A DNA stretch of 64,000 bases from Escherichia phage BP9: the sequence record PP488543.1; one strand, 5' to 3'. Each line of letters begins with the position of its first letter. The stretch's first letter is position 1. The notes under the pieces were generated by a model that saw nothing but the letters and a program-made list of their open reading frames with translations, was not told the origin of the DNA and searched no databases. The translations under genes and the position numbers were made by a program. This document shows positions 1,154-30,668 of this stretch, piece after piece.

Positions 1154-1180
1154 GCCTCACCTTCGGGTGGGGCTTTTTGC
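1154..1180 (+). terminator. rho-independent terminator (8-bp GC stem, UUCG loop, T-run)
   Basis: gcctcacc-ttcg-ggtggggc followed by ttttt, immediately after the stop at 1135. Confidence 0.7.
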
Positions 1181-1225
1181 TTTTATGGTTTTGACACACG
1201 TTCTTGAATTGCTTGAAAGGTTAAA

Positions 1226-1254
1226 TTGACAATGCACCATAATCATGGTAAAAT
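1226..1254 (+). promoter_or_regulatory. sigma70-type promoter with extended -10 (TTGACA-17 bp-TGgTAAAAT)
   Basis: -35 TTGACA at 1226-1231, 17-bp spacer, TG at -15/-14 and TAAAAT at 1249-1254; about 44 bp upstream of the 1298 start. Confidence 0.6.
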
Positions 1255-1297
1255 ACACAAATATGGTGCACAACATGACTAATAAGGATGCTATAAA

Positions 1298-1771
1298 ATG
1301 GCTATAAACTTTAGACCTACAACAGAGATTGATTTAGCAGGGCACAACTTTGTGATCACCCACTGGGGACCGATGAAAGCAATGAAAAATATGCCTAAAA
1401 TCGGTAAGATTGTGGCTGTCCCGCTAGGTGCTATCGGTGGATCTATTATCTCAGGTGGTCAGAATATGGCAGAGGTCCTTCCTACTGCTCTGGCTTACCT
1501 GTTCCAAGAACTTGATGATAACTCTATTGAAGAGTTATTTAAAATTTTGTTCGAAGATATTACCGTAGATGGTGTGGATAAGCTTAACCCGGATGTTGTG
1601 TTTGCAGGGCATCTGCTGGAGATGATTAAGCTGGCAGGTAAGGTTCTGGAGGTTAACTACGGCTGTTTTTTCACACAAGACGGTTTAGGAAGCCTTCTGG
1701 AGATGTTACAGCAGATGGGTATGATTCAGCAGGTGAACAACCTGGATCAGACTCCGGAAGAGCAGGAATAA
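1298..1771 (+). CDS. tail assembly chaperone (lambda G / P2 E-like)
   Basis: 157-aa acidic protein immediately upstream of the tape measure gene, with an overlapping -1 frame ORF and a slippery heptamer at 1666-1672. Confidence 0.55.
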   Translation: MAINFRPTTEIDLAGHNFVITHWGPMKAMKNMPKIGKIVAVPLGAIGGSIISGGQNMAEVLPTALAYLFQELDDNSIEELFKILFEDITVDGVDKLNPDVVFAGHLLEMIKLAGKVLEVNYGCFFTQDGLGSLLEMLQQMGMIQQVNNLDQTPEEQE

Positions 1772-2031
1772 GCAAGGTTGTTGTGAGGGCCAGTGAGTGG
1801 GCAGCCAAGAACAGTTCACTAAACTGGTTCGACTTTCTTTGGTGCAGGGTGCTCAAGAATTTCAAAGGGGAAAATTTTGAATCGCTAAATCTTGCAGATA
1901 TGGCGTATTTCCTGAAGCTCTGTGAGTATCTTGATATCGAAGAATTCCTAGATACCGTCCAAAACAGGGAAATGGAGCGGGAGCAGAAGGCTGCCGCAGC
2001 TGCTGCGAAAGCTAAGCGCAGGAGAGGATAA
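1657..2031 (+). CDS. -1 frame extension ORF of the tail chaperone (GT / E+E'-like frameshift product region)
   Basis: The -1 frame is open from 1657 to the stop at 2031 and overlaps the 3' end of the 1298..1771 gene. T_TTT_TTC at 1666-1672 is a classic X_XXY_YYZ slip site. The track ORF 1783..2031 is the GTG-initiated part of this frame. Confidence 0.5.
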   Translation, partial: LRLFFHTRRFRKPSGDVTADGYDSAGEQPGSDSGRAGISKVVVRASEWAAKNSSLNWFDFLWCRVLKNFKGENFESLNLADMAYFLKLCEYLDIEEFLDTVQNREMEREQKAAAAAAKAKRRRG

Positions 2032-2085
2032 TCTAAGGGCCGGATTCCTTTTCTGGGATCTGGCCCTTTTTATTATGAGGAAACC

Positions 2086-4422
2086 ATGGCTACAAACAAA
2101 ATAGTTGCCACAACAGTCAACAAGATTGGCTTTGAGATAGAGAACTCCTCCTACAAAAAAGCTGTAGAGAAAATTCGCAGTATTGGGAGGGAGTTCAGGA
2201 AACTGGGCGAAGATTTTAACTCAGCCAACCCCATGAGTAGATGGCAGGCGGTAGCTGTTAAAACCCAGCAGACAATGCAGCGGGTTGCCAGACAGCAATC
2301 TCAGGCAAATGCTAAGCTGCACAGGGAGAGCGTAGCACAGGCCAAGAAAGAGGCTGCAGTAAGGGCTGCAATAGAACGTAGGGAGAATGCGAGACGTAAA
2401 CAAGCTGTAGGTAATCTTACCGCTAAAAATCCAGAAATGGCTAGGATGCGTAAGTTCTACCAGCAGCAAGCTAAAGAGGCCAAAAAGGCTGCCAAATCTG
2501 CACCAGTGTCTTACGGTGGTTATAAGGCACCTAAGGCAAGAGTTCTTGCTAACGCCAAGTCTTTCAGATATATTCCAGGCAACCCGAACATGGGTGGGGT
2601 GGCTTCAGATCCTAATCTTGTTAAAGCCCAGACCGCTGCCATGAACCGTTATCACAGACAGCTAAGAAGGGACGGTAAAGCTGGTATGGATAATAGGCTT
2701 ATGTCGGATCGTGAGGCAAGAAGAACCCACCTCTACAACTCCGCGATAAGACTTTCTGCCAAGTATGGTGCCGGATTCCGTGGAAGCTTGCCAGGATACT
2801 CAGAGTTAGAGTCCAGGTTTGCTCGCGGGGAGATGAAAAAGTCAACATTTAACGCCCACTTGTCAGCGCTGCAGTCTGGATTTAAAAGCGCCACCAGCCA
2901 AACGCTTACACTAGGCGATGCCATGAGAGACTTACGTAGATCTGTTATTAATGCAACAGCTGCGTATACAGCTTTTTCTGGATTTGCTGCGGTTAACAGA
3001 TCCGGTCACATGATGGAGGGGGCAAGTGCTGCTCTTACTGCTGTTACTGGAGATCCAAACAAAGCCAACAGTGAGGTTGCGTTTGTCCAGCAAGAGGCTA
3101 TGCGTCTTGGTTTTGATCTCAAATCTGGTCTTCAAGGTTACGCCCAGATGTCGGTAAACGCCAAAAACCAGATGACAAATCAGGAAGTGCATGAGCTGTT
3201 TTCTGCATACTCCCAGTATGCTGCTGCTTATGGTGCTGATGAGGTAAAATATCAGCGCGGTATCATGGCAATCCAGCAGATGCTTGGCAAGGGACAAGTA
3301 ATGTCCGAGGAACTGAAGCAACAGCTTGCTGAAGCATTACCTGGTGCATACGAACCTTTTATCAAGGCCACCAAAGAGGCTTTTGGTCTTTCTGAACTCT
3401 CCATGGATCAGTTCATGGACATGATGAAGAAAGGTGAGGTTAAAACAGCCAAGATCATGAAGTATGTGGCTAAGTACATGAACGAGGCATCTGCAGCTGG
3501 TTATGAAAGAATGCAGAAGTCTAACGTGCTGGCAGAAAACAGACTGAAAACCTTCATTGAACTGACTCGTCAGAAACTGTTCACCCGTTGGTCTGACGAA
3601 CTAACAGAGTTCTATTATACACTAATCCGCACTGGTGAGACTCTGCAATTTGTGTGGGATGCCTCTGGTGATTTTGTTAGCGGGTTTGTGAGAGGCCTTA
3701 ACTGGGTAGTTGGTGAACTAAACAACACTATAGTCAAGATCCGCATGTTTTTCCTTGAATGGGGGATTAAATGGGGATTCATAACAGCTAAGACGAAGGA
3801 ATATTCTGAAGAGCTTCATGACACCTTTAGCTATGCTAGATGGGCAGGGTTTGCTGCTGCCATCATGCTGGTAGTCAACGCCCTAACAAAAGGTTTTGTC
3901 ATGGCATCCATGCTTGTAAAAACCTTTAAATTCCTTAACTCTTTAAGAGGTGCAGCTGGAGCAGCTGGTGTCGCTACTGCAGAAGGATCTGGTGGTGGAG
4001 CTCCGGCAGGAAAAGGTGGAGGTGGCCTCAAGACACCTGGTGGCAAAGTTGGTCTGCTTGGTAAGCTGGGTATTATCGGTACAATATTAAGCGCAGGGGA
4101 ATTATTTAATGACCGTTTCAACCCACTAAGTGAAAGAAATCAGCAGCTGGACACTATCAGCGATATGATTCGCAAAGATATCATATCAGGAGGTAACGGG
4201 TTTGTTAATCCTTTGGACACCTTACCGGGCGGGACTCTTCCGTTGCCAGGTGGCCCCGGTTTTGCTTCTCAATTAAGAACTATGGAAATGCTACCTTTAG
4301 AGATCAGTGATGGGAAAATCACGATTTCAATAGATGAGGGTGAGTTTAACAAAATATTTGATGCAAAACTTGAGTGGGAGAACAATAAAGATATCAACTT
4401 CATGTCTACCGACCTTTGGTAA
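2086..4422 (+). CDS. tail tape measure protein (778 aa)
   Basis: Long alpha-helical, Ala/Lys/Gln-rich N-terminal half; conserved tape-measure motif (GIMAIQQMLGKGQVMSEELKQQLAEALPGAYE); hydrophobic segment and Gly-rich region (GAAGAAGVATAEGSGGGAPAGKGGGG); position after the chaperone pair. Confidence 0.85.
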   Translation: MATNKIVATTVNKIGFEIENSSYKKAVEKIRSIGREFRKLGEDFNSANPMSRWQAVAVKTQQTMQRVARQQSQANAKLHRESVAQAKKEAAVRAAIERRENARRKQAVGNLTAKNPEMARMRKFYQQQAKEAKKAAKSAPVSYGGYKAPKARVLANAKSFRYIPGNPNMGGVASDPNLVKAQTAAMNRYHRQLRRDGKAGMDNRLMSDREARRTHLYNSAIRLSAKYGAGFRGSLPGYSELESRFARGEMKKSTFNAHLSALQSGFKSATSQTLTLGDAMRDLRRSVINATAAYTAFSGFAAVNRSGHMMEGASAALTAVTGDPNKANSEVAFVQQEAMRLGFDLKSGLQGYAQMSVNAKNQMTNQEVHELFSAYSQYAAAYGADEVKYQRGIMAIQQMLGKGQVMSEELKQQLAEALPGAYEPFIKATKEAFGLSELSMDQFMDMMKKGEVKTAKIMKYVAKYMNEASAAGYERMQKSNVLAENRLKTFIELTRQKLFTRWSDELTEFYYTLIRTGETLQFVWDASGDFVSGFVRGLNWVVGELNNTIVKIRMFFLEWGIKWGFITAKTKEYSEELHDTFSYARWAGFAAAIMLVVNALTKGFVMASMLVKTFKFLNSLRGAAGAAGVATAEGSGGGAPAGKGGGGLKTPGGKVGLLGKLGIIGTILSAGELFNDRFNPLSERNQQLDTISDMIRKDIISGGNGFVNPLDTLPGGTLPLPGGPGFASQLRTMEMLPLEISDGKITISIDEGEFNKIFDAKLEWENNKDINFMSTDLW

Positions 4423-4432
4423 TAAACTGTGC

Positions 4433-4458
4433 AGGGGGCTCCGGCCCCCTTTATTTTA
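4433..4458 (+). terminator. rho-independent terminator
   Basis: agggggc-tccg-gccccct hairpin followed by ttattttat, right after the tape measure stop. Confidence 0.65.
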
Positions 4459-4464
4459 TCGGTG

Positions 4465-4493
4465 TTGTAAAAACAGCTATTTTATGATACAAT
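4465..4493 (+). promoter_or_regulatory. sigma70-type promoter with extended -10 (TTGTAA-17 bp-TGaTACAAT)
   Basis: -35 at 4465-4470 and -10 at 4488-4493 with 17-bp spacer and upstream TG. Confidence 0.5.
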
Positions 4494-4526
4494 ATCTAGA
4501 TGGTATCGGAGTGTCCTGGAGAGGTT

Positions 4527-5411
4527 ATGCCAAGCAATATAGTTGATGAAAAAGACCTGTACAAGCCTCAAGAGGTTAAATCTCCAAAGGCTGAAAAGGC
4601 AGAGCAGCAAACTGAAAGCGATGTAAAGTACACTATGTTTGTCAGCGGTCTTAACTATGGTGGTCGCAATACGGAGATGAAGGGTAAAAACTTTACTAAC
4701 GATCTTGCCATTATCTTCGACCAGGTTGAGAACTATTCTTTCAAACATTCTGTTGATAAGACTGATTTTGCAGTGGAAGATAAATCTACCCTGTCAGACC
4801 ACGCTGTAATTAAAGATGGTGTATTTTCTTTTACTGGTAGGGTAAATACATCACCACATATAATCTATGAGCAAAACTACATTGACAGGAATACTGACTC
4901 TAAAAACCCTGCAGCATCTATGCGACCGGGCGCTGCACTGGAGGCTTTGACTGAAATCATTAATAAGCGCCAATTGGTTTCTTTGGTTACCGAGGAAAGA
5001 CTCCTTGAGAACTACATTATAACCAGCCTTTCTGCCAGCAAGTCTGTTGGCGAAGGTGCTGCAATGGTTTTTGATGTAGAGCTTACAGAGTTCCGCACAT
5101 TCTACTTGAACAAGGTTGTTAATGCAACTGTATACAGCAATCCTAAGAAAGTAGGCAAGACCCAACAAAAAGGTGCTGTCAACGACTGTAAGAATGGTAG
5201 TAACGTAGGTAACAAGAGGGACACAGGAGCATTCGCAGACACTGCATCCACAAACGCTGCAGAGGAGTGGCAGCCATACAAATCTATGATGTGGACAGAT
5301 GAAAACGGTGTTACCCAATCGGCTGCGGATTGGTATTATCAGGAATATGGAAGACCTTCTACCATAGTCCCATCTGAGCAGGGAAACTACAACAAAGTTA
5401 ACGGGAAATAA
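4527..5411 (+). CDS. tail/baseplate assembly protein of unknown function (post-tape-measure gene)
   Basis: ATG at 4527 has a GGAGAGG Shine-Dalgarno; the track start at 4500 overlaps the promoter -10 and is unlikely. Occupies the position of LysM/DNA-circulation-type proteins in contractile-tail operons; no motif recognised. Confidence 0.35.
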   Translation: MPSNIVDEKDLYKPQEVKSPKAEKAEQQTESDVKYTMFVSGLNYGGRNTEMKGKNFTNDLAIIFDQVENYSFKHSVDKTDFAVEDKSTLSDHAVIKDGVFSFTGRVNTSPHIIYEQNYIDRNTDSKNPAASMRPGAALEALTEIINKRQLVSLVTEERLLENYIITSLSASKSVGEGAAMVFDVELTEFRTFYLNKVVNATVYSNPKKVGKTQQKGAVNDCKNGSNVGNKRDTGAFADTASTNAAEEWQPYKSMMWTDENGVTQSAADWYYQEYGRPSTIVPSEQGNYNKVNGK

Positions 5412-5423
5412 GGGGAGCGTATA

Positions 5424-5804
5424 ATGGAGCTTAAAGATTGGTGCATAATCACCTTTGTGTGGGACATTGACGGCTTTCCTGATCAAACCATGCGTGTTGT
5501 TTTAGACAACGAAACGTATGAAATGCGTATGCAATGGAATGAGAGGGATGAGTCTTGGTGGTTATCTCTTGGTCCAGTAGGTGACAGCCCTTTAGTAACC
5601 AGAAAAGTAACAGCTTGTCAAGATATCTTAGACGGACTGCATTATAGAGACGATTTACCGAAAGGTAGATTGATGGCACTGTCGTTTAAAGATGATCAAT
5701 ATTGGGGCAGGGTTGGAAGATACAACCTTGGAGCAAGATCCGAGCTACAACTTGTATACGGCACTCCAGTTGATCTTTACAAGGAACAGCAAGGGTTAGA
5801 ATAA
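5424..5804 (+). CDS. small baseplate/tail protein of unknown function (126 aa)
   Basis: Translationally coupled (stop/start overlap at 5804) to the gpD-like hub gene. Confidence 0.3.
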   Translation: MELKDWCIITFVWDIDGFPDQTMRVVLDNETYEMRMQWNERDESWWLSLGPVGDSPLVTRKVTACQDILDGLHYRDDLPKGRLMALSFKDDQYWGRVGRYNLGARSELQLVYGTPVDLYKEQQGLE

Positions 5805-6808
5805 TGGCAGAGTACAGACGTAGAACATGGCGATTATTGTTTGGTCGTCCTGTAGAACATGGCGGTAAATCAAAAACCAATATCCCAAAATCTGTTGAAA
5901 AGAAAGGGGAGAGTGATTCCGGAGTTTATGAAGTTAGCTCAGACACTGGTGCTGCCAATATAGAGTTTGACATACAAAAGGACAATACCAAAGAGCCAAA
6001 CAAAGGTTATGTGACAGTTTACAACCTGTCCGACGATACAGTTAACTATCTGGATATGCATCAGGCTGATGCTCTTGCAGTTATGTTTGAAGCTGGCTAT
6101 GATAATGAGAACCAGTTGATATTCTCCGGAACTGTGGAGTTTGTTGAAGACAGATGGGAAGGTCCTACCAGAAAAACTAAGTTCATCTTTGGGGATGGCA
6201 CTGAGAACATCATTAAGTGCCAAAGCACAAGATCTTATCAGAAAGGCACACCTCTGAACTCTGTGCTTAATGACTTACTGAAGGATATGAACTTGCCAAA
6301 AGGTAGGGTTGTTGGTTTTGGAAACCAGACTTTGCAATACTCTATGGCTTTCTCTGGAAACACTGCAGAGAACCTCCGCAGGTTTGCAAGGCTGACCAAC
6401 TCAACATTTAGCGTTCAGGATGGGGCTTTGTATTGGACCAAGGTTGGAAAAAGGTTCAAAGACTCTGTGTTTGAAATAAGCGCAGAGTCTGGGATGCACG
6501 GATCTCCTACCCCTAAAAACCCAGAACCTGCTAAAAAACGAAAAGCTAAAGCTGCTGCCAAAGGTGGTTCGACATCTAAAAAGAAAAAGAAAAACCCGAG
6601 AGAGGATGTTGGCCTTACTGTAACCACATGCCTTAACGGAGCTATCCTCCCAGAGTCCACTATTTATCTTAAAAGCAAGCAATATACAGGCTTCTATAAG
6701 GTGATCACGGTGCATCATAAGGGCACCATAGAAGGTGGTGATTACACTACAGAGCTTGGCCTTGGGGAAACAGTGGGTGGAGTTGTTGACAAAACTGAGG
6801 AGGTATAA
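5804..6808 (+). CDS. baseplate hub protein, Phage_GPD (P2 gpD / Mu gp44 / gp27-like) family
   Basis: C-terminal signature similar to the P2 gpD terminus (GFYKVITVHHKGTIEGGDYTTELGLGE versus GFKPEID..WIITRVTH..GYQTTLELE); size 334 aa; located upstream of the spike and wedge genes. Confidence 0.55.
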   Translation: MAEYRRRTWRLLFGRPVEHGGKSKTNIPKSVEKKGESDSGVYEVSSDTGAANIEFDIQKDNTKEPNKGYVTVYNLSDDTVNYLDMHQADALAVMFEAGYDNENQLIFSGTVEFVEDRWEGPTRKTKFIFGDGTENIIKCQSTRSYQKGTPLNSVLNDLLKDMNLPKGRVVGFGNQTLQYSMAFSGNTAENLRRFARLTNSTFSVQDGALYWTKVGKRFKDSVFEISAESGMHGSPTPKNPEPAKKRKAKAAAKGGSTSKKKKKNPREDVGLTVTTCLNGAILPESTIYLKSKQYTGFYKVITVHHKGTIEGGDYTTELGLGETVGGVVDKTEEV

Positions 6809-7485
6809 TGGCAATAAATAGGAAAGATGCTGCTGTAAGATCCTTCATAGAAAAAATAATGAGGGACTACCACACCAGTATCAGGGCCAGAGTTGTCAGT
6901 GTAGACTACAGTATCCCTTCTGCATCTGTGCAGCCAATAGCTGAAACCACGTTTGATGACGGAGATGTGGAGAGATACCCCCTTATCTATGACGTTCCAA
7001 TTCAGGTGATGTCTGCAAACAGCGGAAAGGCAAGGTTAACACTTCCTATTAAGGCCGGAGATGTTGTAGGATTGCAGTTTTCAGAGAGGAATGAAAACAA
7101 TAACGACGATCAACAAACTCACGGCCTGTTTCCAGGGTGGGCAATCACCTCCGTTCATTCAGACTCAAACGCTTTACAGATCGATCCTGATAACGTAGAG
7201 TTATGGAATGATAGGGTTTATTTTAAACTGACACCTTCTGGCGATTTTGAGCTTCAGACACCGGGTGGAACATTACGGTGCGACAGCAGCGGGGAGTTTT
7301 CTTTCACTAACGGTGCTGCCAATTTGCGAGCTGCTGTGGATGGAAATATCAGAATGAATGGTGCCACAATAGACCCATCTGGTAGAATTATAACTGCTGC
7401 TGGCGTGGATTTGGATTCATTCTATGCAGAATATAAAGGTCATACCCACTCTTGCCCTGATGGCGAGACAAGTGGACCGCACTAA
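6808..7485 (+). CDS. baseplate central spike protein (P2 gpV / Mu gp45-like, OB-fold plus metal-binding apex)
   Basis: C-terminal GHTHSCPDGETSGPH matches the gpV terminus HTHKHPGDSGGTTGSPL; N-terminal region resembles the gpV OB-fold; start overlaps the hub stop. Confidence 0.7.
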   Translation: MAINRKDAAVRSFIEKIMRDYHTSIRARVVSVDYSIPSASVQPIAETTFDDGDVERYPLIYDVPIQVMSANSGKARLTLPIKAGDVVGLQFSERNENNNDDQQTHGLFPGWAITSVHSDSNALQIDPDNVELWNDRVYFKLTPSGDFELQTPGGTLRCDSSGEFSFTNGAANLRAAVDGNIRMNGATIDPSGRIITAAGVDLDSFYAEYKGHTHSCPDGETSGPH

Positions 7486-7497
7486 TAGAGGGCTTTC

Positions 7498-8214
7498 ATG
7501 GCTACGCTTTATAGTGATATATTGATGGACCCACAGACAGGCGATTTGGCGATAGACAAAGGTCTTGAGTTGATAGATTCAAACCAGGTAAGTCTGCGCC
7601 AGCGCTTGTGGATGAGATTTAATACGTGGAAGGGGAGCTGGTACTTTGACGAGCTGTTTGGCTTCCCTTATATGGACTTTCTCAGCAAGAAGGTCATGAA
7701 GACTGTTCTTGATAACAAGATTATGGAAGTGGCAAGACAAGAGCCGGATGTGCTAAACATCATAAACTTCCAATCTACCATGGATAGAAGATCGAGAACA
7801 TACCAAGCGTTCTTTGAGGTTGTTACCAAAGAGAACGAGATTGTAAGGCTGGCTTTTGTAGGTCTTGATCAGTTCACCTACCCACAGCCTGATTCTGGGA
7901 CAACCTCCCTCTGTGATGATGAGGGTTGGATTAAGTGGGCTAATAAACTGTACTATCTGATCAACTTCAGATTGCCTAGAACCGGAGATGCCACATGGTG
8001 GAACCAGTATGCTGGTCCTGAGATGGAAAACCCGATCCCTGTAGGCTCTCTGTTGACTCAGGATAAAGATCTGCTGATGACTGAGGCAGAACAAACCATT
8101 AACCGCAATACCTGGACGCTTGCTCCAGATGAGCGCGAATACTCTGGTGTTATTGCTACCTCCAATGATGAGGCTATTGCCAACCAGTCTGGTCGTGCTA
8201 TTGATGTTAACTAA
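7498..8214 (+). CDS. baseplate wedge protein, gp25/gpW-like (DUF2634-type) with C-terminal extension
   Basis: N-terminal pattern D..TGDLAIDKG..L..QRLWMRFNTWKGSWYFDELFGFPY resembles the gp25/W family consensus. Confidence 0.45.
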   Translation: MATLYSDILMDPQTGDLAIDKGLELIDSNQVSLRQRLWMRFNTWKGSWYFDELFGFPYMDFLSKKVMKTVLDNKIMEVARQEPDVLNIINFQSTMDRRSRTYQAFFEVVTKENEIVRLAFVGLDQFTYPQPDSGTTSLCDDEGWIKWANKLYYLINFRLPRTGDATWWNQYAGPEMENPIPVGSLLTQDKDLLMTEAEQTINRNTWTLAPDEREYSGVIATSNDEAIANQSGRAIDVN

Positions 8215-8223
8215 GGAGAAATC

Positions 8224-8892
8224 ATGGCTGTAGCTTATCCTACAATACCAATTCCAGATCTTGAAGATGCAGAAACAGTCCTGAGTGATGACTTCTTGGT
8301 TGTCAACCAGACTGATGGGACAAGAAAGGCTAAGATTGACGATGTTGTCAACGATCTTAGCATCACTAAGATAGTCTATTTCACAGAGGGTGGTTATCTT
8401 AAGAGCAAGAAGGACTTTGCTTATGATCCAGAAACTAAGCGCTACTACACGTGGAACGGGGATTATCCTAAAATAATCCTCCCAGACTCCACTGTAGAGG
8501 GTGCTGGGGGTGTGTCTGCAAATGCCTGGTCTGTTTTTGGTGAGCTTGCTGCAACTTCTTCTGGCAGAATAGTTGATTACGGATCTATCGGTGGTCAGCT
8601 TGATATGGATCTTGAAGTTGCGGATACCTTTAAGGTTCGACTAACTTCAAATACCACAATCTCTTTTGAAAATCAAACAGAAGGTCTTGAAGGGGTGGCG
8701 AGAACTATAACCGTATGCATTACTCAGACCTCTGGCGGCAACAAAGTCTATTGGCCAGGTAATGTTAAATGGTCCTACGGAAGAGATCCTATCCTAACAT
8801 TTACAGCTGGTGCAACAGACATTTTCAAGTTGGAAACCTACGACAACGGGTTAACTTGGTACGGGGCACTGATTATCGCAGGAGCTATCTAA
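8224..8892 (+). CDS. short fibre/adaptor protein sharing the N-terminal anchor domain of the long fibre
   Basis: N-terminal ~100 aa (DDFLVVNQTDGTRKAKIDDVV..GGYL..DFAY) are clearly paralogous to the N-terminus of the 11528..15340 fibre (DDYLVVQQPDLTRRVKIGDVV..GGKL..DFAY). Confidence 0.5.
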   Translation: MAVAYPTIPIPDLEDAETVLSDDFLVVNQTDGTRKAKIDDVVNDLSITKIVYFTEGGYLKSKKDFAYDPETKRYYTWNGDYPKIILPDSTVEGAGGVSANAWSVFGELAATSSGRIVDYGSIGGQLDMDLEVADTFKVRLTSNTTISFENQTEGLEGVARTITVCITQTSGGNKVYWPGNVKWSYGRDPILTFTAGATDIFKLETYDNGLTWYGALIIAGAI

Positions 8893-8893
8893 G

Positions 8894-11491: not shown

Positions 11492-11527
11492 CATAGGGGG
11501 GCTGTTTGCCCCCTTTCAGGAGAAAGA

Positions 11528-15347: not shown

Positions 15348-15372
15348 GCCCCCGCTTCGGCGGGGGCTTTTT
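15348..15372 (+). terminator. rho-independent terminator (cccccgc-UUCG-gcggggg + T5)
   Basis: Perfect 7-bp GC stem with ttcg tetraloop and ttttt, 8 bp after the fibre stop. Confidence 0.8.
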
Positions 15373-15379: not shown

Positions 15380-15408
15380 TTGCGTATTAACTCAAAATCT
15401 GGTAAAAT
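15380..15408 (+). promoter_or_regulatory. sigma70-type promoter with extended -10 (TTGCGT-17 bp-TGgTAAAAT)
   Basis: -35 at 15380-15385, -10 TAAAAT at 15403-15408 with TG at -15/-14; same -10 block as the promoters at 1226 and 21196. Confidence 0.55.
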
Positions 15409-15439
15409 AACTATCATGATTGTTTAACCGGGAGGCACA

Positions 15440-16030: not shown

Positions 16031-16135
16031 GATGATCAGAGCGCCATTAGATAATTTATTTCTTGAAAGCTGGAGCTTGATGGTGTTGAGATCTTAATTG
16101 CTGCAAAGCTGGAGCTACCGACAGGAACTGTCAGG

Positions 16136-16582
16136 GTGTGCTCAGGCACTGGTGTTGTAGTAATTGAGGGGCAACATTTTATAGGGATAGGTGGGTCAGC
16201 AACATTAACCGCTGTGTCTGAGAAAGATGCCACCAACTTCGGATCTGTGGTAGCGACATTGAACGGGTTTGATCCTAAGTATGTGGGTGATCTGCTGAAG
16301 ACGGAGTATTCTGGTTGTCGTGCCACGTTGTACATTACCGCTATGGAGAATGGTCTGCCTGTTACAACTAATGGCTTGTTTGACGGCCTTATAACAGATA
16401 TGGCTATTCAGACGGGTGAGAATAGCGCTTTGTCCATATCCATCTCTTCCATCTTCAACAGTTGGTTAAGAGGTTTTCCTTATCGGTACACGGAGGAAAG
16501 CCACAGCTCAAGAAACGATAACGACAGATTTTTTAAATATGTGGATCAGGTGGCGAGCCGCCCGATCATTTGGGAGGTTTAA
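16136..16582 (+). CDS. putative minor tail protein (lambda L / hub-associated position)
   Basis: GTG start at 16136 in the track; the frame is open upstream to about 16055 with a possible TTG start near 16076. Synteny only. Confidence 0.3.
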   Translation: MCSGTGVVVIEGQHFIGIGGSATLTAVSEKDATNFGSVVATLNGFDPKYVGDLLKTEYSGCRATLYITAMENGLPVTTNGLFDGLITDMAIQTGENSALSISISSIFNSWLRGFPYRYTEESHSSRNDNDRFFKYVDQVASRPIIWEV

Positions 16583-17007
16583 TGAGCACACATCCTCGTC
16601 TAGTGGACTGGCAAGAAAGATTGTGGAAAGTGTTTGACGAAGAGGCCACCATACCTTTTGAATGGGGATTCCACGATTGTTGCACCTTTGCAGCTAAGTG
16701 TGTTGATGCCCAATACGGAACAGATTTTCTTTCTAACTTCGAAGGAACGTATAAAACAGAGTTGGAAAGCAAAAGATGGTGCATGCTCCGTTTCAAAACC
16801 ACACACCTGCCTACTATTTTTGATCTCTTTATGACTCGGCTGGATACTCCTAAACAGGTTCAGCGTGGAGATATTGTCATTTTCGAAGGTCTGAACGGCC
16901 TCACCGCTGGTGTGTTCTGGAACAACCAGATTTGGGCGAAAGGTGATAAAGGGGTCTTTATGTTCGATATGAAAGATTCTATCGTTGTTGATGTCTGGAG
17001 GTATTAA
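16570..17007 (+). CDS. NlpC/P60-like cysteine peptidase-fold tail protein (lambda K / GTA phage-NlpC family)
   Basis: FEWGFHDCCTFAAKCVDAQYG contains the His-Asp-Cys arrangement typical of phage tail NlpC/P60 proteins; directly precedes and overlaps the J-like gene. Confidence 0.5.
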   Translation: MGGLMSTHPRLVDWQERLWKVFDEEATIPFEWGFHDCCTFAAKCVDAQYGTDFLSNFEGTYKTELESKRWCMLRFKTTHLPTIFDLFMTRLDTPKQVQRGDIVIFEGLNGLTAGVFWNNQIWAKGDKGVFMFDMKDSIVVDVWRY

Positions 17008-21152: not shown

Positions 21153-21160
21153 CCTTTAAA

Positions 21161-21188
21161 GCCCCGCTTCGGCGGGGTTTATTTTTAT
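21161..21188 (+). terminator. rho-independent terminator (gccccgc-UUCG-gcggggt + T-run)
   Basis: Hairpin with ttcg loop followed by ttatttttat, 9 bp after the J-like stop. Confidence 0.8.
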
Positions 21189-21195
21189 GCTCAGA

Positions 21196-21224
21196 TTGAC
21201 TATTGTTACAAAATTTGGTAAAAT
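21196..21224 (+). promoter_or_regulatory. sigma70-type promoter with extended -10 (TTGACT-17 bp-TGgTAAAAT)
   Basis: -35 TTGACT at 21196-21201, -10 TAAAAT at 21219-21224, TG at -15/-14. Confidence 0.6.
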
Positions 21225-21257
21225 ACCTTGTAGAGATTTTCATACCGGAGGAGTGAC

Positions 21258-22748
21258 GTGGCTAAGTATGGATTGACAGAGGCTGGTTTCGTTATACCAA
21301 CCCTAAATGACCTAATCGTTGAAACTAAGCAAAGCCTGATCCGTGCTTTTGGCGAAAACTTCAACGTACAGAGTAACTCCGTTGCAGATAAGCTGACCAC
21401 TATCTTCAACGAGCGAGAGTATCAACTTATTCTTATGGCAGCATCTGTATACGCATCACAGACGCTGTATGGGGCAGAAGGTATTTACCTAGATGAGCTT
21501 CTTGGAAGACAGGGTATTTACCGAAGAGGCCGTTCTAAATCATCAGGTACCTGCCAGTTGACAATCAACACAACTGTGCCGTACAATATGATTTATGATT
21601 CCAAAACTTATACGCTGGACAGTGGCAACTTTGTTCTTAGCAACGATGTGCAAGTAGCAGGGAATCTTATTGCTCACAGAATAAATGCTCCAGACCTAAG
21701 GATTGGGAAATACAACTTCCAAATTACCAACCAGACAGATGGAAGTATCAAAACAAAAAGCCTGGTTTTAACAGATAAGTCTCTGGACTCTTCTGATTTG
21801 CCAAGCTTTTACGGAGAGATTAAGCAATTCATTGTCGATAATACAACCCTGTTGAACGACGATTTGATTCAGATCGATATGTTGACAGGGACGTTGTGGA
21901 TAGGGTACAATTCAAATCTTGATCAAGTTGGACTTAATAGCAGAGTAGATTTCAGAGTATCCCCGATTGTAGGGGAAAGAACTATCACACTGGATGTTAT
22001 CGCTAACGAGGCTGGTGAGCTGTCAAGAGAAGCAGAAACCGTGACAACAATGTCGCCTACTCCTAGTGGATTTATCAAGCTTACCAACCGAGAAAGATTC
22101 AATGAGGGCAGGGATGTTGAGAAAGACTCAGAGTATCGCTTAAGAGCTTCCAGCACAAAACAGTTAACATCGAAGGCTACCCGTCCTGCAATCCTTAGCG
22201 CTGTAAGCGAGGTAAAAGGTGTTGAGAAAGTGAGAGTGTTCTCCAACAACACCGATAAAACTGATGCTAAAGGTATACCTCCTTACAAGTTCCAAGTGGT
22301 TGTGTTTGGTGGTGCAACGGAGGACATTTGCCAAGCACTTTACCAAACTATAGCCTGTACGAACAGGACTTATGGTAATATTTTCTACGATATCACTACA
22401 TCTGACGGTCAAACTGAAAGAATTTATTACTCCAGGGCAAATACCTACCGCCTAGATGTAAGAATTACCTATTCCGGCGCTGCGCTTTCCACAACCGAAA
22501 AAGATGCCATTGTAGAGGCTCTTTTGCAGGTTGTTAACGGACTTGATGTTGCAGATACGTTGTACAATATCCAATTGGTCGGTGCTGCATCCGCTGCTGT
22601 GTCGATAGGTAGATTTAATAGACTGGTAATTCAAGTTAAACCAGTAGGAGCTTCTGATGAAGCTTACACGACAAACGATATTGTTGCGAACATGACCGAG
22701 GTGTTTGACCTCGACGAAAGTAATATAACTTTCCAACAAACTATTTAA
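21258..22748 (+). CDS. putative baseplate wedge protein (baseplate J / gp6-like)
   Basis: GTG start with GGAGG Shine-Dalgarno. N-terminus MAKYGLTEAGFVIPTLNDL...FGENFNV resembles the N-terminal pattern of baseplate J-family proteins as I recall it; downstream partner of a gpI-like position. Not verified. Confidence 0.4.
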   Translation: MAKYGLTEAGFVIPTLNDLIVETKQSLIRAFGENFNVQSNSVADKLTTIFNEREYQLILMAASVYASQTLYGAEGIYLDELLGRQGIYRRGRSKSSGTCQLTINTTVPYNMIYDSKTYTLDSGNFVLSNDVQVAGNLIAHRINAPDLRIGKYNFQITNQTDGSIKTKSLVLTDKSLDSSDLPSFYGEIKQFIVDNTTLLNDDLIQIDMLTGTLWIGYNSNLDQVGLNSRVDFRVSPIVGERTITLDVIANEAGELSREAETVTTMSPTPSGFIKLTNRERFNEGRDVEKDSEYRLRASSTKQLTSKATRPAILSAVSEVKGVEKVRVFSNNTDKTDAKGIPPYKFQVVVFGGATEDICQALYQTIACTNRTYGNIFYDITTSDGQTERIYYSRANTYRLDVRITYSGAALSTTEKDAIVEALLQVVNGLDVADTLYNIQLVGAASAAVSIGRFNRLVIQVKPVGASDEAYTTNDIVANMTEVFDLDESNITFQQTI

Positions 22749-22759
22749 GGCGGCGAGAT

Positions 22760-23446
22760 ATGGCAGAGATTAAGTCGGATGTTAACCACATCCACACTCT
22801 GCCAGATTTTGTTCAGGGAGGTCTTGACTACCTACCTGGAGATTTTCTGGCTGAGAAGGTTAATTTAGTCACATTCTTAACCGTATACCTTAAAAGGTTG
22901 GAGGATGTTGATAAGATGCTGGTAGGTTTGGCTGAAGGAAGATTGCTTAACAATGCCAGCGGAAGATACCTTGACGAAGTTGGTAATCAATTTGGTATTC
23001 TTAGGAATGGACTTTCAGATGCTGATTTTCGTGCCACACTAATTATTCAGCAGGCCGCAGCATCAAGGGGCGGGACTCGCGAAGATGTCATCTCCACCTT
23101 GCGACAATTGTTCGGAAGAGACAATTTCGATACGTGGAAAGGAGACAACTTCAGGTTTGACATAAATATTAGAAAAACTTGCTTTGACATATTGCAGTCT
23201 ATCGATCAGATCTTAGATATGCTACCATTGCCTTGTCATTTGCGTCTTACAGAATCGCAAGGGCAAGCTTTTGGTTTTGAAGGGGACTCTACAGCTCTTG
23301 GCTTCGGATCGGTGTGGGAAGAAAACCAATTCGGAGTTGGTGGGCTGGCTACTTTGCTGTATGTTCCTGACGTAAGACCTGATTGGGACACCACAACCAT
23401 TTATTGTGAAAGTATTACAGTAAACGCAACTAGACAGGAGGGTTAA
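22760..23446 (+). CDS. baseplate/fibre-associated protein of unknown function (gpI-like position)
   Basis: Position between the putative baseplate J gene and the first distal fibre gene; no motif recognised. Confidence 0.25.
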   Translation: MAEIKSDVNHIHTLPDFVQGGLDYLPGDFLAEKVNLVTFLTVYLKRLEDVDKMLVGLAEGRLLNNASGRYLDEVGNQFGILRNGLSDADFRATLIIQQAAASRGGTREDVISTLRQLFGRDNFDTWKGDNFRFDINIRKTCFDILQSIDQILDMLPLPCHLRLTESQGQAFGFEGDSTALGFGSVWEENQFGVGGLATLLYVPDVRPDWDTTTIYCESITVNATRQEG

Positions 23447-25518
23447 TGGCAACAGCTGTTTTTAAACCTTACCGTGATTACTCTACAATGGCTGCACAGT
23501 TTCATTACCGAACAGTTCAGGATACTGCCGTTCCTGGTAGGGATTATAATCATGTTGAGGGCGATGTAACTATCCCAATTGGGGCAACCAGTATTGAAAT
23601 CCCAGTGGAAATTGTTGACAAATTACCCAACAGGTTACCAAGAAGCTTCTTTATGGAGTTTTCATCAAAATCTCAAGGGGTGATGATTGGGACACAAAGG
23701 GCAAAATGTACAATAGTTTCAGATGAGAATCTTGACAGGATATCTTGGGATACTGTTGAGGAGAGAATGTTTCACCCAAGATATTGGGTTACAACCACCC
23801 AGCAGACTGAAAGTACCTGTATTGTTGCAGATGACAACTGTTGTATTAACCGTTTAGTGTCAAGAACATATGGGGGTATGGCTGGGTGCATTTGGGAAAC
23901 AGTTGACAAGTATGACCATTTCGGTATTGGGTTTGATGATCACTATGAGATGAGAAATACCAAGCTTTGGTTCAGAATGTCAATAACCAATGCCAGCAAC
24001 TTCTCCACTCCTGAAAAGATGATTATGACTGTAGACCTTGTTGATGGCACAATCATCTATGTTCCTTTAGCTCAATATGCTGTCAGCATCTCAGAGGATA
24101 AGAATGTTGCAGAAATTCATATTGATTTTGAGGACTGCGTCGGGATGGACCAGAACAACAACATGATGGGTGTTGATCCTCGGCAGGTGAGAAGGATTTT
24201 AATACCGCTCATGCCTAAAGACTGGGTAAGTAATAGCACAGACCCGAGAACGGAAAATGTAGAGTGCGAGTTGCGCTTAGACCTGCTTCAGCCAGACACA
24301 GGTTGGAAAATGATGCAACTTAACAATATTCAGGTTAAAGAGCACGACGTTGGGATCTGCACTGCATATGACGATATGTGGAACGTATCCCCTTTAAGGG
24401 TGTTGAACAATATCAAGCGTCTGGGCTATACCGGAACCATAAACCATTATGTTGGTATGAGTCATTATTATGACTACACGTGGTCAGGAACCCAATGGTC
24501 TATAAACAGAACAGGGGCGCTAAACGCTGCAGCTTATAAATGGCATGATGATTTTATGTACAATGCCAAACGACATAACTTCGACGTTATGCAGTCTGTA
24601 AGTTTTGAGCTTTACAGCGATGCCTGCCCGTTGGAATGGACCCAAAGAGACTGGAACGATAACTACGCTAAAACAGGGTATACACCTTGTAGCTACCTCC
24701 TGTCTCCAACCATTGAAGAGGGTATGAATTTCCTTACTGCAGTATTTAAGAATTTTGCATCAGCCGCTATGAGAAACAACCTGCCAGTGATTATGCAGGT
24801 TGGTGAACCGTGGTGGTGGTACAATACCGATACTCGTAGACCTTGTATTTATGATTACCCTACAAAACAGGCGTTTTATGATGAGACAGGCGAGTATGCA
24901 TTAGATATTGGGACTATTGACGATCCTAAAACTGGCGGTGTTTACGATAAGTATGTAGCATTTTGTCGTGGTAAGCTTGGCGCTCGTATTGCGGCTATTT
25001 CAAAGGCAATAAAGGCACACGCTGCATCAGCTCAGATGACAGCTCTGCTGTTTTTCCCAACCATTATGGAAACCGAGCTTACGCAAAAGCTTAACCTTGC
25101 TGACCAATATAAAAAGGAAGCAGGTGCTCTTGATTTCTTCTGCACCGAGTGCTACGATTGGGTGATGCAGGGAGGTATTGAAAAGGCAAAAGAGTCTGTA
25201 AACATACCTATCGTTAAGTTAGGTTGGCAACCGTCTGAAATACAATACCTTGCAGGGTTCGTTCCTAGCAAAGAGCTTGCTCCGGTATATGGCTACGACC
25301 CAACCAGGAATTACCAAGAATTCTTATGGAGATGTATCTGCGGAAACATGGCAACTATAGAGTATAGATACCCTGAGGTAAAACAGTATGTGTGGGCATA
25401 CCCGCAAGTAATGTCTGACAGCATTACTGTTACCGCTAGAGATTCTACCGTGCTTCATATGGGGCAGGTTGCTCTGAAAGGGTATGTAGAGGATGTTGTC
25501 CCGCCAGACTTCTCATAA
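23446..25518 (+). CDS. putative tailspike/depolymerase: N-terminal Calx-beta-like domain plus TIM-barrel glycoside-hydrolase-like domain (690 aa)
   Basis: N-terminal DYNHVEGDVTIPIGATSIEIPVEIVD resembles Calx-beta; central/C-terminal region has a GEPWWWY segment reminiscent of the NEP acid/base motif of clan GH-A hydrolases. Confidence 0.35.
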   Translation: MATAVFKPYRDYSTMAAQFHYRTVQDTAVPGRDYNHVEGDVTIPIGATSIEIPVEIVDKLPNRLPRSFFMEFSSKSQGVMIGTQRAKCTIVSDENLDRISWDTVEERMFHPRYWVTTTQQTESTCIVADDNCCINRLVSRTYGGMAGCIWETVDKYDHFGIGFDDHYEMRNTKLWFRMSITNASNFSTPEKMIMTVDLVDGTIIYVPLAQYAVSISEDKNVAEIHIDFEDCVGMDQNNNMMGVDPRQVRRILIPLMPKDWVSNSTDPRTENVECELRLDLLQPDTGWKMMQLNNIQVKEHDVGICTAYDDMWNVSPLRVLNNIKRLGYTGTINHYVGMSHYYDYTWSGTQWSINRTGALNAAAYKWHDDFMYNAKRHNFDVMQSVSFELYSDACPLEWTQRDWNDNYAKTGYTPCSYLLSPTIEEGMNFLTAVFKNFASAAMRNNLPVIMQVGEPWWWYNTDTRRPCIYDYPTKQAFYDETGEYALDIGTIDDPKTGGVYDKYVAFCRGKLGARIAAISKAIKAHAASAQMTALLFFPTIMETELTQKLNLADQYKKEAGALDFFCTECYDWVMQGGIEKAKESVNIPIVKLGWQPSEIQYLAGFVPSKELAPVYGYDPTRNYQEFLWRCICGNMATIEYRYPEVKQYVWAYPQVMSDSITVTARDSTVLHMGQVALKGYVEDVVPPDFS

Positions 25519-25530
25519 TCAGGAGATAAA

Positions 25531-26571
25531 ATGTCAAAACCTAGTTTTCCATTAGAGATTTGGGCAGAGGAGGATCAGGTTCTGCCTAACACCCACAGAC
25601 AGAACAGGCTACGCCCGATTGATGATTTGTGGAGAAAAGGTTGGGATCTTGGTCAAAAGCCCTCATGTGAAGAACTTAACTATATTTTCAATATGCTCGG
25701 AACTTGGGCAAAATACATTGCTGACGAGCAGATCCCCGCTCAAGAAGGCCGTTATCTGGTACGTGATAATAACTTGAGTGATCTTTTGAACATCCCTGTT
25801 GCCCGTAGAAACCTTGGGATTATTACCAAGGAAGAGGCAGACGCCAGGTATGTAAAAGTTACAGGTGATACAATGACAGGCCCGTTGGGTTTGCAACGTA
25901 TCAACTTTAAAGCTGCCGAGACAGATAAGGCTTGGATAGAGACAACTATTGGCCCAGATAAGACAACTCTCGACTTCGGGTTAAGTGATAATATTGGGTC
26001 GTTTGATGATGGTGGTACATCTACAGTAGATGCGTTTCGTTGGAGATTCCAGCCAACTCAGCCGGATATTAATCCAGAGTTCACTTTGATGTACCTTAAC
26101 GCGATCACGGCGAACCGTGCGCTGTTGAAAGTGGTAGGCAATGTTGAAGTTGTCGATAACATGAGGTGCAATAACCTTACTATCAGCAATACAGCAACAT
26201 TCACCAACTGTAATGTGGCTAGTCAGTTGACGGCCGGGTCAGTATATGTTAATGGTGGTGCAAGTTGTGACAGCATGGTTGTAAGAAGTCAGCACTGTGT
26301 TGTCGGTAACAGAAATGTGGTTCGCTCTGTGAACGGAGTGACGGCTAACGGTAACGGTGATGTAACGATCACTATCCCGCAGACAGGTGTGCAAGACATC
26401 AGAATCGGTGCAAGACTTGTTGACGGCGTTTCTGAATCTCCAATTCGCAACGGCTACGTTGTCACAGGCTGGCATTTCGGTGACAAAAAAGAGATGCGTG
26501 GTTCAACCTACTGGGCAGGACCTTTACAAAAACTTGTAAATGGTCAATGGATCACTGTTAATTATGCATAG
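25531..26571 (+). CDS. tail fibre protein with P2 gpH / Mu S-like C-terminal receptor-binding region
   Basis: C-terminus ...GWHFGDKKEMRGSTYWAGPLQKLVNGQWITVNYA parallels the P2 gpH end (...AGWHFYSQ...YINGTWYNVAQV); followed by a Tfa gene. Confidence 0.7.
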   Translation: MSKPSFPLEIWAEEDQVLPNTHRQNRLRPIDDLWRKGWDLGQKPSCEELNYIFNMLGTWAKYIADEQIPAQEGRYLVRDNNLSDLLNIPVARRNLGIITKEEADARYVKVTGDTMTGPLGLQRINFKAAETDKAWIETTIGPDKTTLDFGLSDNIGSFDDGGTSTVDAFRWRFQPTQPDINPEFTLMYLNAITANRALLKVVGNVEVVDNMRCNNLTISNTATFTNCNVASQLTAGSVYVNGGASCDSMVVRSQHCVVGNRNVVRSVNGVTANGNGDVTITIPQTGVQDIRIGARLVDGVSESPIRNGYVVTGWHFGDKKEMRGSTYWAGPLQKLVNGQWITVNYA

Positions 26572-26585
26572 ATCGGAGGACTAGC

Positions 26586-27170
26586 ATGAAAATACTTCAA
26601 GAGTTTAAACTTTACCAACCGGGATCTGGCGAATACCACGCCAACAAGGAAACCAAAGAGCTGACCCCTCAAGAGGTTGAGGATTACACCGCATACACTG
26701 GGTATTTTTTACGTAATGATGATGGCGATTGGTATGTGCAGTCACGAACATTACGACAAGAAAATCCGGGTTGTATCTTCCTACTTGTTGACGAGAAGGG
26801 AATTCTTAAGACATCTACAGAAGAACCTGATGCCTTATGGCCTGCTCCAGGTCTTCGTGTGGTTATCGCCAAAAAAGAAGAGGTACCAGAAAACATTATG
26901 CTTCACCACGACGCTTTGCGTTTAGTTGGTGATGAATTTGTCACAGATAATGAATTCTTTGTTCAACAGGCAGAGGGTGTCATAGAGACAGAACTTGCTT
27001 GGGCTACTGCTAGAATTGGTGCCTATCAAGACATGATTGACCTTGAATATGATCTTACTGATGACCAGAAACGTAACATCAGGGATTTGAAAATGTACAG
27101 GGTAAAACTTCTTGAAATAGATACATCTAAAGCCCCTGACATTTTCTTCCCGGAGCGACCTACCCTCTAA
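26586..27170 (+). CDS. tail fibre assembly chaperone (Tfa / P2 gpG-like)
   Basis: C-terminal block QKRNIRDLKMYRVKLLEIDTSKAPDIFFPERP matches the conserved Tfa terminus (..YR..L..VD...AP.I.WPEKP); immediately downstream of a fibre gene. Confidence 0.7.
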   Translation: MKILQEFKLYQPGSGEYHANKETKELTPQEVEDYTAYTGYFLRNDDGDWYVQSRTLRQENPGCIFLLVDEKGILKTSTEEPDALWPAPGLRVVIAKKEEVPENIMLHHDALRLVGDEFVTDNEFFVQQAEGVIETELAWATARIGAYQDMIDLEYDLTDDQKRNIRDLKMYRVKLLEIDTSKAPDIFFPERPTL

Positions 27171-27181
27171 GAGGAGGTGTT

Positions 27182-27496
27182 GTGGAGTTGGATTTGGCGG
27201 CATTGTACGGTATCTGCATGGGTACCGTTGTCCCGATCTGTGTATGGGCTTTCAACCAGTGGCACACCAAATGGAAAGGCATTTCCAAGAGGCTGGATGA
27301 ACTGGAGAAAGACCTCATCTTAGTGAAAAACAGTATGGTTACAAAAGATAAACTTGATTCCGTTATCGAGACCCGGTTAAGCAAGCTAGAGGCCGATATT
27401 AACGACCTTAAGCAGGATGTCAGGACAGATGTCTCCGGCATCAGAGCTGATGTACAAAAGATTTTGCACATGCTTGTAGAGCATAGTAAAAGGTAA
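27182..27496 (+). CDS. small N-terminally membrane-anchored coiled-coil protein (104 aa), function unknown
   Basis: GTG start after GAGGAGG; hydrophobic N-terminus LAALYGICMGTVVPICVWAF followed by heptad-rich sequence; architecture is i-spanin-like, but no partner lipoprotein was seen. Confidence 0.35.
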   Translation: MELDLAALYGICMGTVVPICVWAFNQWHTKWKGISKRLDELEKDLILVKNSMVTKDKLDSVIETRLSKLEADINDLKQDVRTDVSGIRADVQKILHMLVEHSKR

Positions 27497-27505
27497 ACAA
27501 AGGTC

Positions 27506-27540
27506 AGAACGGAAAGGACTCCGTTCTTGCATTTTGTTCT
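27506..27540 (+). terminator. rho-independent terminator
   Basis: agaacgg-aaaggact-ccgttct hairpin followed by a T-rich tract. Confidence 0.55.
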
Positions 27541-27555
27541 CTAAAGTGTTAAAAT
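27527..27555 (+). promoter_or_regulatory. sigma70-type promoter with extended -10 (TTGCAT-17 bp-TGtTAAAAT)
   Basis: -35 at 27527-27532 overlapping the terminator 3' arm; -10 TAAAAT at 27550-27555 with TG upstream. Confidence 0.5.
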
Positions 27556-30660: not shown

Positions 30661-30668
30661 TATATCTG

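Follow-up and report, generated by a model that had tools for sequence, protein, structure and literature searches.

Terminator-like hairpins paired with putative late promoters in the structural gene block of the rV5-like Escherichia phage BP9

The transcription signals of rV5-like phages were described by Kropinski in 2013 (Virol J 10:76; PMC3606486), who applied MEME to the upstream regions of rV5 late genes 27-66. That study reported eight copies of the motif TggTAaAAtA in rV5, likened it to the T4 late motif TATAAATA, and listed the putative late promoters P051, P048, P040, P036 and P030 in Table S4C and the terminators t052, t050, t049, t041, t028, t026/27 and t003 in Table S4D. It found no homologs of gp33, gp45 or gp55 in rV5 and pointed to an Srd-like protein, gp11, as a putative anti-sigma factor (PMC3606486). 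In T4-type phages, elements known as promoter-early stem-loops (PeSLs) have been described (Arbiol 2010, PMC2839356; Comeau 2014, PMC4122927), and the only promoter reported for Certrevirus in the CB7 paper is an early sigma70-type promoter. In this study, we analyzed a stretch of 64,000 nucleotides (nt) from Escherichia phage BP9 (record PP488543.1), which as a whole is called the window here and from whose first letter all positions are counted. Five intergenic gaps in its block of tail, baseplate and fibre genes each carry a hairpin followed by a promoter-like site, and we refer to these hairpin-promoter pairs as cassettes 1 to 5, located at sites 1 to 5.

The window belongs to a Vequintavirus, an rV5-like Escherichia coli myophage that is ~95% identical to rV5 over 1-19087, a segment corresponding to the reverse strand of 30451-49544 in rV5 (DQ832317). 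A megablast search of the phage collection with 1-20000 and 19000-37000 matched more than 100 Escherichia Vequintavirus genomes at 93-97% identity. Gene labels were taken from the annotated relative EduardKellenberger/Bas59, from RefSeq FFH2 and from Pfam. We conclude, with a probability of about 0.75, that the five gaps contain rho-independent terminators and putative late promoters that were already described for rV5-like phages. Sites 1-5 of the window match the entries of Table S4C save for single-base strain differences; t052, t049 and t041 of rV5 are the hairpins of sites 1-3, and t003 is a hairpin at 47313. The GenBank record of rV5 annotates 'Sigma70-type promoter; P51' and three terminators in this stretch, the HdK5 record annotates terminators at sites 1-4, 2035 and 30668, and the Gotham record carries a PhagePromoter promoter at all five sites and ARNold terminators at four. 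The sequence-level picture was published in 2013, and the five-gap finding itself adds nothing new. What is added here is the conservation of two cassettes across genera, a -35 TTG in 8/8 late promoters, a higher conservation of the gaps than of the flanking genes, the requirement that the terminators leak, and the lack of a link between cassettes and recombination junctions. With these modest additions, what was a MEME motif becomes a well-supported promoter class that can be tested.

An earlier note, made from the letters of this stretch alone, had proposed that the five gaps contain a GC hairpin followed by a near-consensus promoter of the form TTGAC.-17-TGnTAAAAT, and that three of the hairpins share one core that recurs at 47312. 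The pairing was borne out at every gap: a hairpin with a T-rich tail precedes a promoter-like site, always on the + (coding) strand. At site 1, the hairpin at 1152..1175 (rV5 t052; folding free energy, dG, -16.9 kcal/mol) lies downstream of the tail tube gene (662-1135) and has the stem AGGCCTCACC/GGTGGGGCTT, a TTCG loop and the tail TTTGCTTTTA (CTCACC-TTCG-GGTGGG). It is followed at 1226..1255 by TTGACA-17-TGGTAAAATA (P051), which scored 11/12 plus TG in the promoter scan and would drive the chaperone gene at 1298-1771. Site 2, after the tape-measure gene, consists of GGGGGC-TCCG-GCCCCC with a T tail at 4433..4450 (t049; dG -16.1) and TTGTAA-17-TGATACAATA at 4465..4494 (P048), upstream of the tail tube initiator and baseplate genes that start at 4527. 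At site 3, GCCCCCGC-TTCG-GCGGGGGC with the tail TTTTTGTTTG at 15348..15367 (t041; dG -19.9) precedes TTGCGT-17-TGGTAAAATA at 15380..15409 (P040), which heads the lambda-J-like tip module. Site 4 combines AAGCCCCGC-TTCG-GCGGGGTTT and the tail ATTTTTATG at 21159..21180 (dG -16.5) with TTGACT-17-TGGTAAAATA at 21196..21225 (P036), upstream of the baseplate-J-like gene. At site 5, a weak hairpin, AGAACGG(A)-loop-(T)CCGTTCT, at 27506..27527 (dG -13.1) is joined to TTGCAT-17-TGTTAAAATA at 27527..27556 (P030), upstream of the second short fibre gene.

The results showed that an extended -10 element is present at sites 1-5 (in order, TGGTAAAAT, TGATACAAT, TGGTAAAAT, TGGTAAAAT and TGTTAAAAT) and that a -35 element related to TTGACA stands 17 base pairs (bp) away from it at all five (TTGACA, TTGTAA, TTGCGT, TTGACT and TTGCAT). 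The 17-bp spacer and the TGn of the proposed pattern were confirmed, whereas TTGAC occurs only at sites 1 and 4 and the -10 hexamer of site 2 is TACAAT. Likewise, a GC hairpin is found at sites 1-4, while site 5 has a weak, AU-richer stem. The 3' arm of this stem overlaps the -35 element of site 5, and with four GC pairs and an interrupted T tail the hairpin is marginal as an intrinsic terminator; it was not called a terminator by the ARNold-based annotation in HdK5 or Gotham, and among relatives its stem is kept and its loop is variable. The core CCCCGCTTCGGCGGGG occurs exactly three times in the window (15350, 21162 and 47313), so that among the five gaps it is found only at sites 3 and 4; the third copy is the recurrence placed at 47312, which starts at 47313.

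We then compared these sites with shuffled sequences. The hairpin energies of the five gaps were 3.0 to 5.9 standard deviations below those of the shuffles. The composite pattern TTG-N17-TGNTAMAAT had exactly five matches on both strands of the 64-kilobase (kb) window, which are the five sites, against a mean of 0.15 in shuffles, none of which (0/100) reached five; this statistic is only indicative because the pattern was written after the sites had been seen. A generic promoter scan gave no enrichment over shuffles (39 vs 32.0; 43 vs 35.8), and TGNTAAAAT alone was only about two-fold enriched in the window (7 vs 3.3). Both counts would suit an explanation in which the promoter-like sites are chance matches in AT-rich spacers behind genuine terminators and the block is read as one long read-through transcript. 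Against it stands the placement of the sites: apart from the gaps that hold them, no gap between + strand genes in 1-36345 reaches 77 nt, all five lie on the coding strand, and each -10 element ends 30-43 nt ahead of a start codon with a Shine-Dalgarno sequence, which supports the five sites independently of the pattern. The composite count and the conservation described below, with sites near-invariant in the genus and retained at syntenic junctions between proteins of 50-60% identity, also argue against chance matches, and we regard that explanation as highly improbable.

Site 1 also contains a perfect 8-bp inverted repeat, TGCACCAT-N22-ATGGTGCA, at 1233-1270, centred on the -10 element. This repeat could be a candidate operator; its left arm varies in three relatives, with no compensating changes. 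An Rfam scan of the whole window at gathering thresholds returned zero families, indicating that the leaders are not known riboswitches or RNA elements.

To describe conservation within the genus, we compared eight intergenic gaps with their 400-nt coding flanks in 10 genus-level genomes. The gaps were 98.3% identical to the window and the flanks 96.3% (Fisher P = 5e-21, a value that overstates the case because the 10 genomes are not independent), a difference that indicates probable purifying selection on the gaps. The 105-nt gap of site 4 had 99.7% identity across the 10 genomes and was essentially invariant in 14 sequences. More distant relatives were found via the chaperone protein and by tblastn against the phage collection. 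The proteins of PVP-SE1 and of Pectobacterium phage CB7V are only 51-60% identical to those of the window, and after the tape-measure gene PVP-SE1 has GGGGCTTCGGCCCC-T8...TGATAAAAT and CB7V has GGGGCTTCGGCCCC...TGCTAAAATA; in both, a hairpin and TGATAAAATA precede the baseplate-J gene. The same arrangement follows the tape-measure gene in the IMG/VR relatives L009-L016, with a weaker variant in L018. In ESCO5, which belongs to the sister subfamily Stephanstirmvirinae, CCTCGCTTCGGCGGGG-T6...TTGACA-17-TGTTACAATA follows the tape-measure gene, its stem differing in sequence and standing at the same junction as site 2. TGnTA(A/C)AAT sites orthologous to the site 2 promoter are present in PVP-SE1, CB7V and ESCO5. 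The site 1 promoter is genus-specific, and the distant relatives have only a hairpin there, in a gap of ~70 nt. A search of IMG/VR with the baseplate-J protein yielded no more than three loci, all near-identical. Judged from these alignments, the putative promoter motif TGnTAAAATA is conserved from Vequintavirus to Seunavirus and Certrevirus, with a related form in Stephanstirmvirinae, and this cross-genus late motif may not have been noted before.

To address which polymerase would read the sites, we examined eight rV5 late promoters, comprising the five sites of the window, P064, P056 and a site, also conserved in CB7V, that lies within the 3' end of the portal gene. The results showed that a -35 TTG lies exactly 17 bp upstream of the -10 element in 8/8 of them and in most orthologs, and that TGn is present in all. 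TGn followed by TAnAAT is the sigma70 extended -10 consensus, and its combination with TTG at 17 bp points to a sigma70 extended -10 architecture. The annotations of the whole genome of Bas59, a carefully annotated close relative, and of 60-100 kb of rV5 include no phage RNA polymerase or sigma factor, which makes transcription by host RNA polymerase, the enzyme named in the earlier note, the reasonable reading. The anatomy of the sites, their position relative to the genes and their conservation in the genus and at syntenic junctions of other genera were observed directly; that the sites terminate and initiate transcription, that sigma70 recognizes them and that they are used late in infection is what we infer.

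Several points weigh against this reading. At hexamer position 3 the late promoters have A (six) or C (two) and never T, the base after the hexamer is always A, and the sites occur only in the structural block, none of which sigma70 requires. In PVP-SE1 and CB7V, TTG is missing at -35 of the baseplate-J promoter. Sites 1 and 4, being near-consensus sigma70 promoters, should already be active when infection begins, which is odd for a 'late' label. The composite pattern derives from the very sites that it scores, and a literature search found no transcript mapping for any member of Vequintavirinae.

These idiosyncrasies of the late class leave room for a phage factor. TGnTAAAATA could be a phage-specific late promoter that needs a phage-encoded factor to modify the host core enzyme or the sigma70 holoenzyme, analogous to T4 gp55/gp33 or to AsiA-type sigma appropriation, and the Srd-like protein might be involved. 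In addition to the late-block restriction, the base preferences and the missing TTG mentioned above, such a factor would fit the systematic difference from the early promoters, in which TTGACA is perfect and the -10 element, though TATAAT-like, varies (Table S4A, PMC3606486), and the AAATA 3' half of the motif, which equals that of the T4 late motif, as Kropinski noted (PMC3606486). A putative anti-sigma factor is also encoded: the Srd-like protein corresponds to 42096-43151 of the window, on the minus strand. This protein has no Pfam match, however, and its role is only putative. Homologs of gp55, gp33 and gp45 are not annotated in Bas59 (whole genome) or in 60-100 kb of rV5, although no remote-homology search was made of the many hypothetical proteins. 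A TTG spaced by 17 bp in 8/8 late promoters would be needless if recognition were independent of -35, and TGn with TAnAAT is itself what sigma70 holoenzyme recognizes as an extended -10. We therefore consider a requirement for a phage factor unlikely, and slightly more doubtful still that TGnTAAAATA is the site of a phage-encoded late factor that redirects host RNA polymerase in a switch distinct from that of T4 gp55/gp33/gp45. Recognition by the host sigma70 enzyme is the reading that we favour.

Two further rV5 sites outside the window concern the same motif. The late-type promoter inside the 3' end of the portal gene, TTGCAA-17-TGnTAAAATA, lies upstream of the prohead protease gene (5195-5224 in the rV5 locus L001 and 226-255 in the CB7V locus L020) and is missing from Table S4C (PMC3606486). 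At P064 (L001, 3522-3600), the order is reversed: TTGCCA-17-TGGTACAATA comes first, the hairpin t064ABC follows ~20 nt later, and then the portal gene. The P064 hairpin would sit in the transcript leader.

The earlier note had also read the cassettes as dividing the block into separate transcription units. This separateness was not supported, because terminators without promoters lie in the same block. Four further hairpins without a promoter were found there (2035, 11497, 30668 and 36360). The hairpin at 2035..2068 (+ strand; rV5 t050), which separates the chaperone genes from the tape-measure gene, is the strongest of the region (dG -26.1), and the 54-nt gap around it (2032-2085) contains only this hairpin and a ribosome-binding site. 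The hairpin terminator at 30668..30689 (+ strand; t028; dG -15.3) lies ahead of the 5.6-kb fibre gene, again with nothing but a ribosome-binding site beside it in the 48-nt gap 30661-30708. Since only a terminator, and no promoter, stands in front of the tape-measure gene and of the 5.6-kb fibre gene, they would be expressed only by read-through, and these hairpins would have to act as leaky attenuators.

We propose the following mechanism for the block. Host RNA polymerase would transcribe the structural genes from left to right, and at each gap the GC-rich hairpin with its U-tract would stop part of the incoming transcription. The TTG-N17-TGnTAAAATA promoter, with a partial -35, an extended -10 and an A-rich hexamer, would re-initiate transcription 12-50 nt downstream and give a leader of ~24-37 nt. 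Each pair would thereby set transcription to a new level between groups of genes that are required in unequal amounts, namely sheath and tube, chaperones, tape measure, baseplate and fibres, the J-like tip, baseplate J and fibres, and the second short fibre. The terminators would act as leaky attenuators rather than as insulators, and hairpins and promoters are best seen as elements that together would set relative transcript levels.

The remaining hairpins were characterized in the same way. A bidirectional terminator at 36360..36381 (rV5 t026/t027; dG -16.6) marks the convergent end of the structural block. The third copy of CCCCGC-TTCG-GCGGGG at 47313..47328 (+ strand; t003; tail ATTTTCTATTT; dG -13.5) lies in the non-structural region before the gene at 47349 and has no late-type promoter behind it. 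A GC-rich stem-loop with a U-rich tract was found at sites 1-4, 2035, 30668, 36360 and 47313 (dG -13.5 to -26.1), and the hairpins start 4-17 nt past the stop codons of the upstream + strand open reading frames (ORFs). Between the two lateral fibre genes, GGGGGGC-TGTT-TGCCCCC with a TTTC tail at 11497..11514 (+ strand; dG -15.7) is followed by no promoter and, with so short a tail, is marginal as an intrinsic terminator. In this 36-nt gap (11492-11527), the hairpin GGGGGGCTGTTTGCCCCC directly abuts an AGGAG ribosome-binding site and is kept in 12 genomes; a role in attenuation or in translational coupling is conceivable. In FFH2 (L026), a 385-nt gap at 6314-6699 takes the place of the 48-nt terminator gap of the window (~30660-30710), and the BLAST matches overlap at 30515-30842, which suggests a possible local duplication or insertion at the 30668 terminator.

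The earlier note had further found that the cassettes look like portable module boundaries, to be checked by whether recombination breakpoints coincide with them. To check this, we aligned the cassettes with one another and aligned ten relatives to 1-37000, profiled the identity and segmented the profiles, which gave 46 junction clusters. The results showed no enrichment at the cassettes: 2/46 clusters lie within 60 nt of one of the five, with 1.2 expected (P = 0.33), whereas 40/46 fall inside fibre ORFs, which cover 60% of the region. Each of the large replacements (14469-15343, ~19000-20100 and 30850-36000) has at least one end inside a fibre gene. The mutual alignment of the five copies had a mean column identity of 48%, with invariant columns almost all in the hairpin and the TG/-10 motif, so that only functional motifs are shared. 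The idea of portable boundaries was therefore not upheld.

A stronger form of this idea would treat the pairs as mobile regulatory cassettes in the sense of the T4-type PeSLs, that is, as recombination sites that move gene modules. One coincidence is clean: at 15343, a swapped fibre C-terminus with an extra 333-nt ORF ends where cassette 3 begins, and homology resumes exactly at that left edge in four relatives (Gotham, CarlMeissner, FFH2 and APECc02). A change point at 21117-21126 lies ~35 nt ahead of cassette 4. PVP-SE1 and CB7V lack the gene sets headed by cassettes 3 and 5: the J-like module, which is bounded by cassettes 3 and 4, and, behind cassette 5, the duplicated gene for a short fibre. 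Sites 3 and 4 have the same hairpin core and are 71% identical over 45 nt. Against these observations stand the junction counts, the lack of any cassette alignment outside the motifs and the number of copies, which is five, with none in a hyperplastic ORFan region. The similarity of sites 3 and 4 is no outlier either: non-motif identity among late-promoter pairs averaged 14.4/45 (standard deviation 3.7), with 22/45 for sites 3 and 4 and 23 for the top pair, P064-P056. An exact-match scan of IMG/VR found the hairpin core in at least 120 unrelated viral contigs, none of them homologous to the window, and a T tail follows the core in 98/125 copies among the matches listed, so the shared core is probably a generic terminator. 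We also considered whether cassettes 3 and 4 arose by duplication and enclose a J-like module that was inserted, which was unsupported because 22/45 falls within the range of the pairs and the hairpin is generic. Taken together, the mobile-cassette explanation appears very unlikely, and the gaps are read here as terminators and putative late promoters. The genes on either side of the cassettes, in the tail, baseplate and fibre block, have known structural roles.

In a separate observation on exchange, YN3 (L028) is ~100% identical to the window from ~18270 to ~27900 and 94-97% identical elsewhere. This indicates a probable recent exchange of a 9.6-kb block, both ends of which lie inside genes.

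The structural block runs on the + strand over 1-36345 and begins with the 3' end of the tail sheath gene, followed by the tail tube gene already mentioned. The tail assembly chaperone gene at 1298-1771 (Pfam Phage_TAC_15) is followed by a small ORF, and the tape-measure gene occupies 2086-4422. The genes for the tube initiator, baseplate hub and spike and for the two lateral fibres extend over 4527-15340, and the lambda-J-like tip module over 15440-21152, with Pfam Phage_Tail_Tip and Ig_J_second domains in its large protein. Next come the genes for the baseplate-J-like protein (21258-22748), fibres and a fibre chaperone (together 21258-27496), then those for the second short tail fibre (27586-28629) and a glycosidase fibre (together 27586-30660), and finally the 5.6-kb gene for an intimin-domain fibre (30709-36345). 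The second short fibre gene, which has its own promoter in site 5, is absent from PVP-SE1; it and the short tail fibre gene at 25531-26571 are paralogs (43% amino-acid identity, E = 7e-96).

Two features of the tip module were also recorded. In the gene starting at 16032, the window reads GAAAG at 16066-16069 where rV5, EduardKellenberger and YN3 read GAAAAG. This 1-nt deletion in an A-run frameshifts the gene for a tail/baseplate protein like rV5 gp39, with a stop at ~16095 and the ORF resuming in another frame at 16136-16582, and it is either a homopolymer sequencing error or a genuine pseudogene. In the lambda-J-like fibre gene, 19296-19958 holds five tandem-like copies of a 60-nt unit that are 60-80% identical and spaced by 132, 132, 186 and 153 nt. 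This array sits in the segment ~19000-20100, which is replaced or missing in most relatives.

Phages of the rV5 type are widely isolated and are used for E. coli biocontrol and therapy. A correct map of transcription units would aid their annotation and engineering, for example in swapping fibre modules without breaking expression.

Among known systems, the PeSLs of T4-type phages resemble the five gaps in composition, being intergenic composites of a stem-loop terminator or attenuator, a sigma70-like promoter and a Shine-Dalgarno sequence, all of which the five gaps contain, and both have been proposed to carry their own transcription signals to gene modules. PeSLs, in contrast, hold early promoters, are numerous, retain ~100 bp of conservation between copies, lie in hyperplastic ORFan regions, have indels ending at them and form mini-circles. 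The rV5 cassettes number five, lie in the late structural block, resemble each other only at the level of motifs and show no junction enrichment, and thus lack three defining PeSL features, namely the ~100-bp conservation between copies, the hyperplastic early location and the coincidence with junctions. The late promoters of T4 share with these sites an A-rich -10-type motif upstream of virion genes and the identical 3' half, AAATA, but they have no -35 element and need gp55/gp33/gp45, whereas here TTG is conserved and the motif is TGnTAAAATA. The sigma70 extended -10 promoters of E. coli are matched in the TG one base before TAnAAT, the 17-bp spacer and the partial or full TTGACA; the sites differ from them in the invariant trailing A, the avoidance of T at hexamer position 3 and the confinement to the late block, and their use by sigma70 is only probable. 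The closest match is provided by rV5 itself, where the same elements stand at orthologous positions in a phage that is ~95% identical. Kropinski's study gave promoters and terminators in separate tables and did not describe them as pairs, did not list the hairpins of sites 4 and 5, and reported neither the conservation in other genera nor the -35 TTG. Its authors inclined to a T4-late-like reading; by contrast, sigma70 is favoured by the -35 evidence obtained here.

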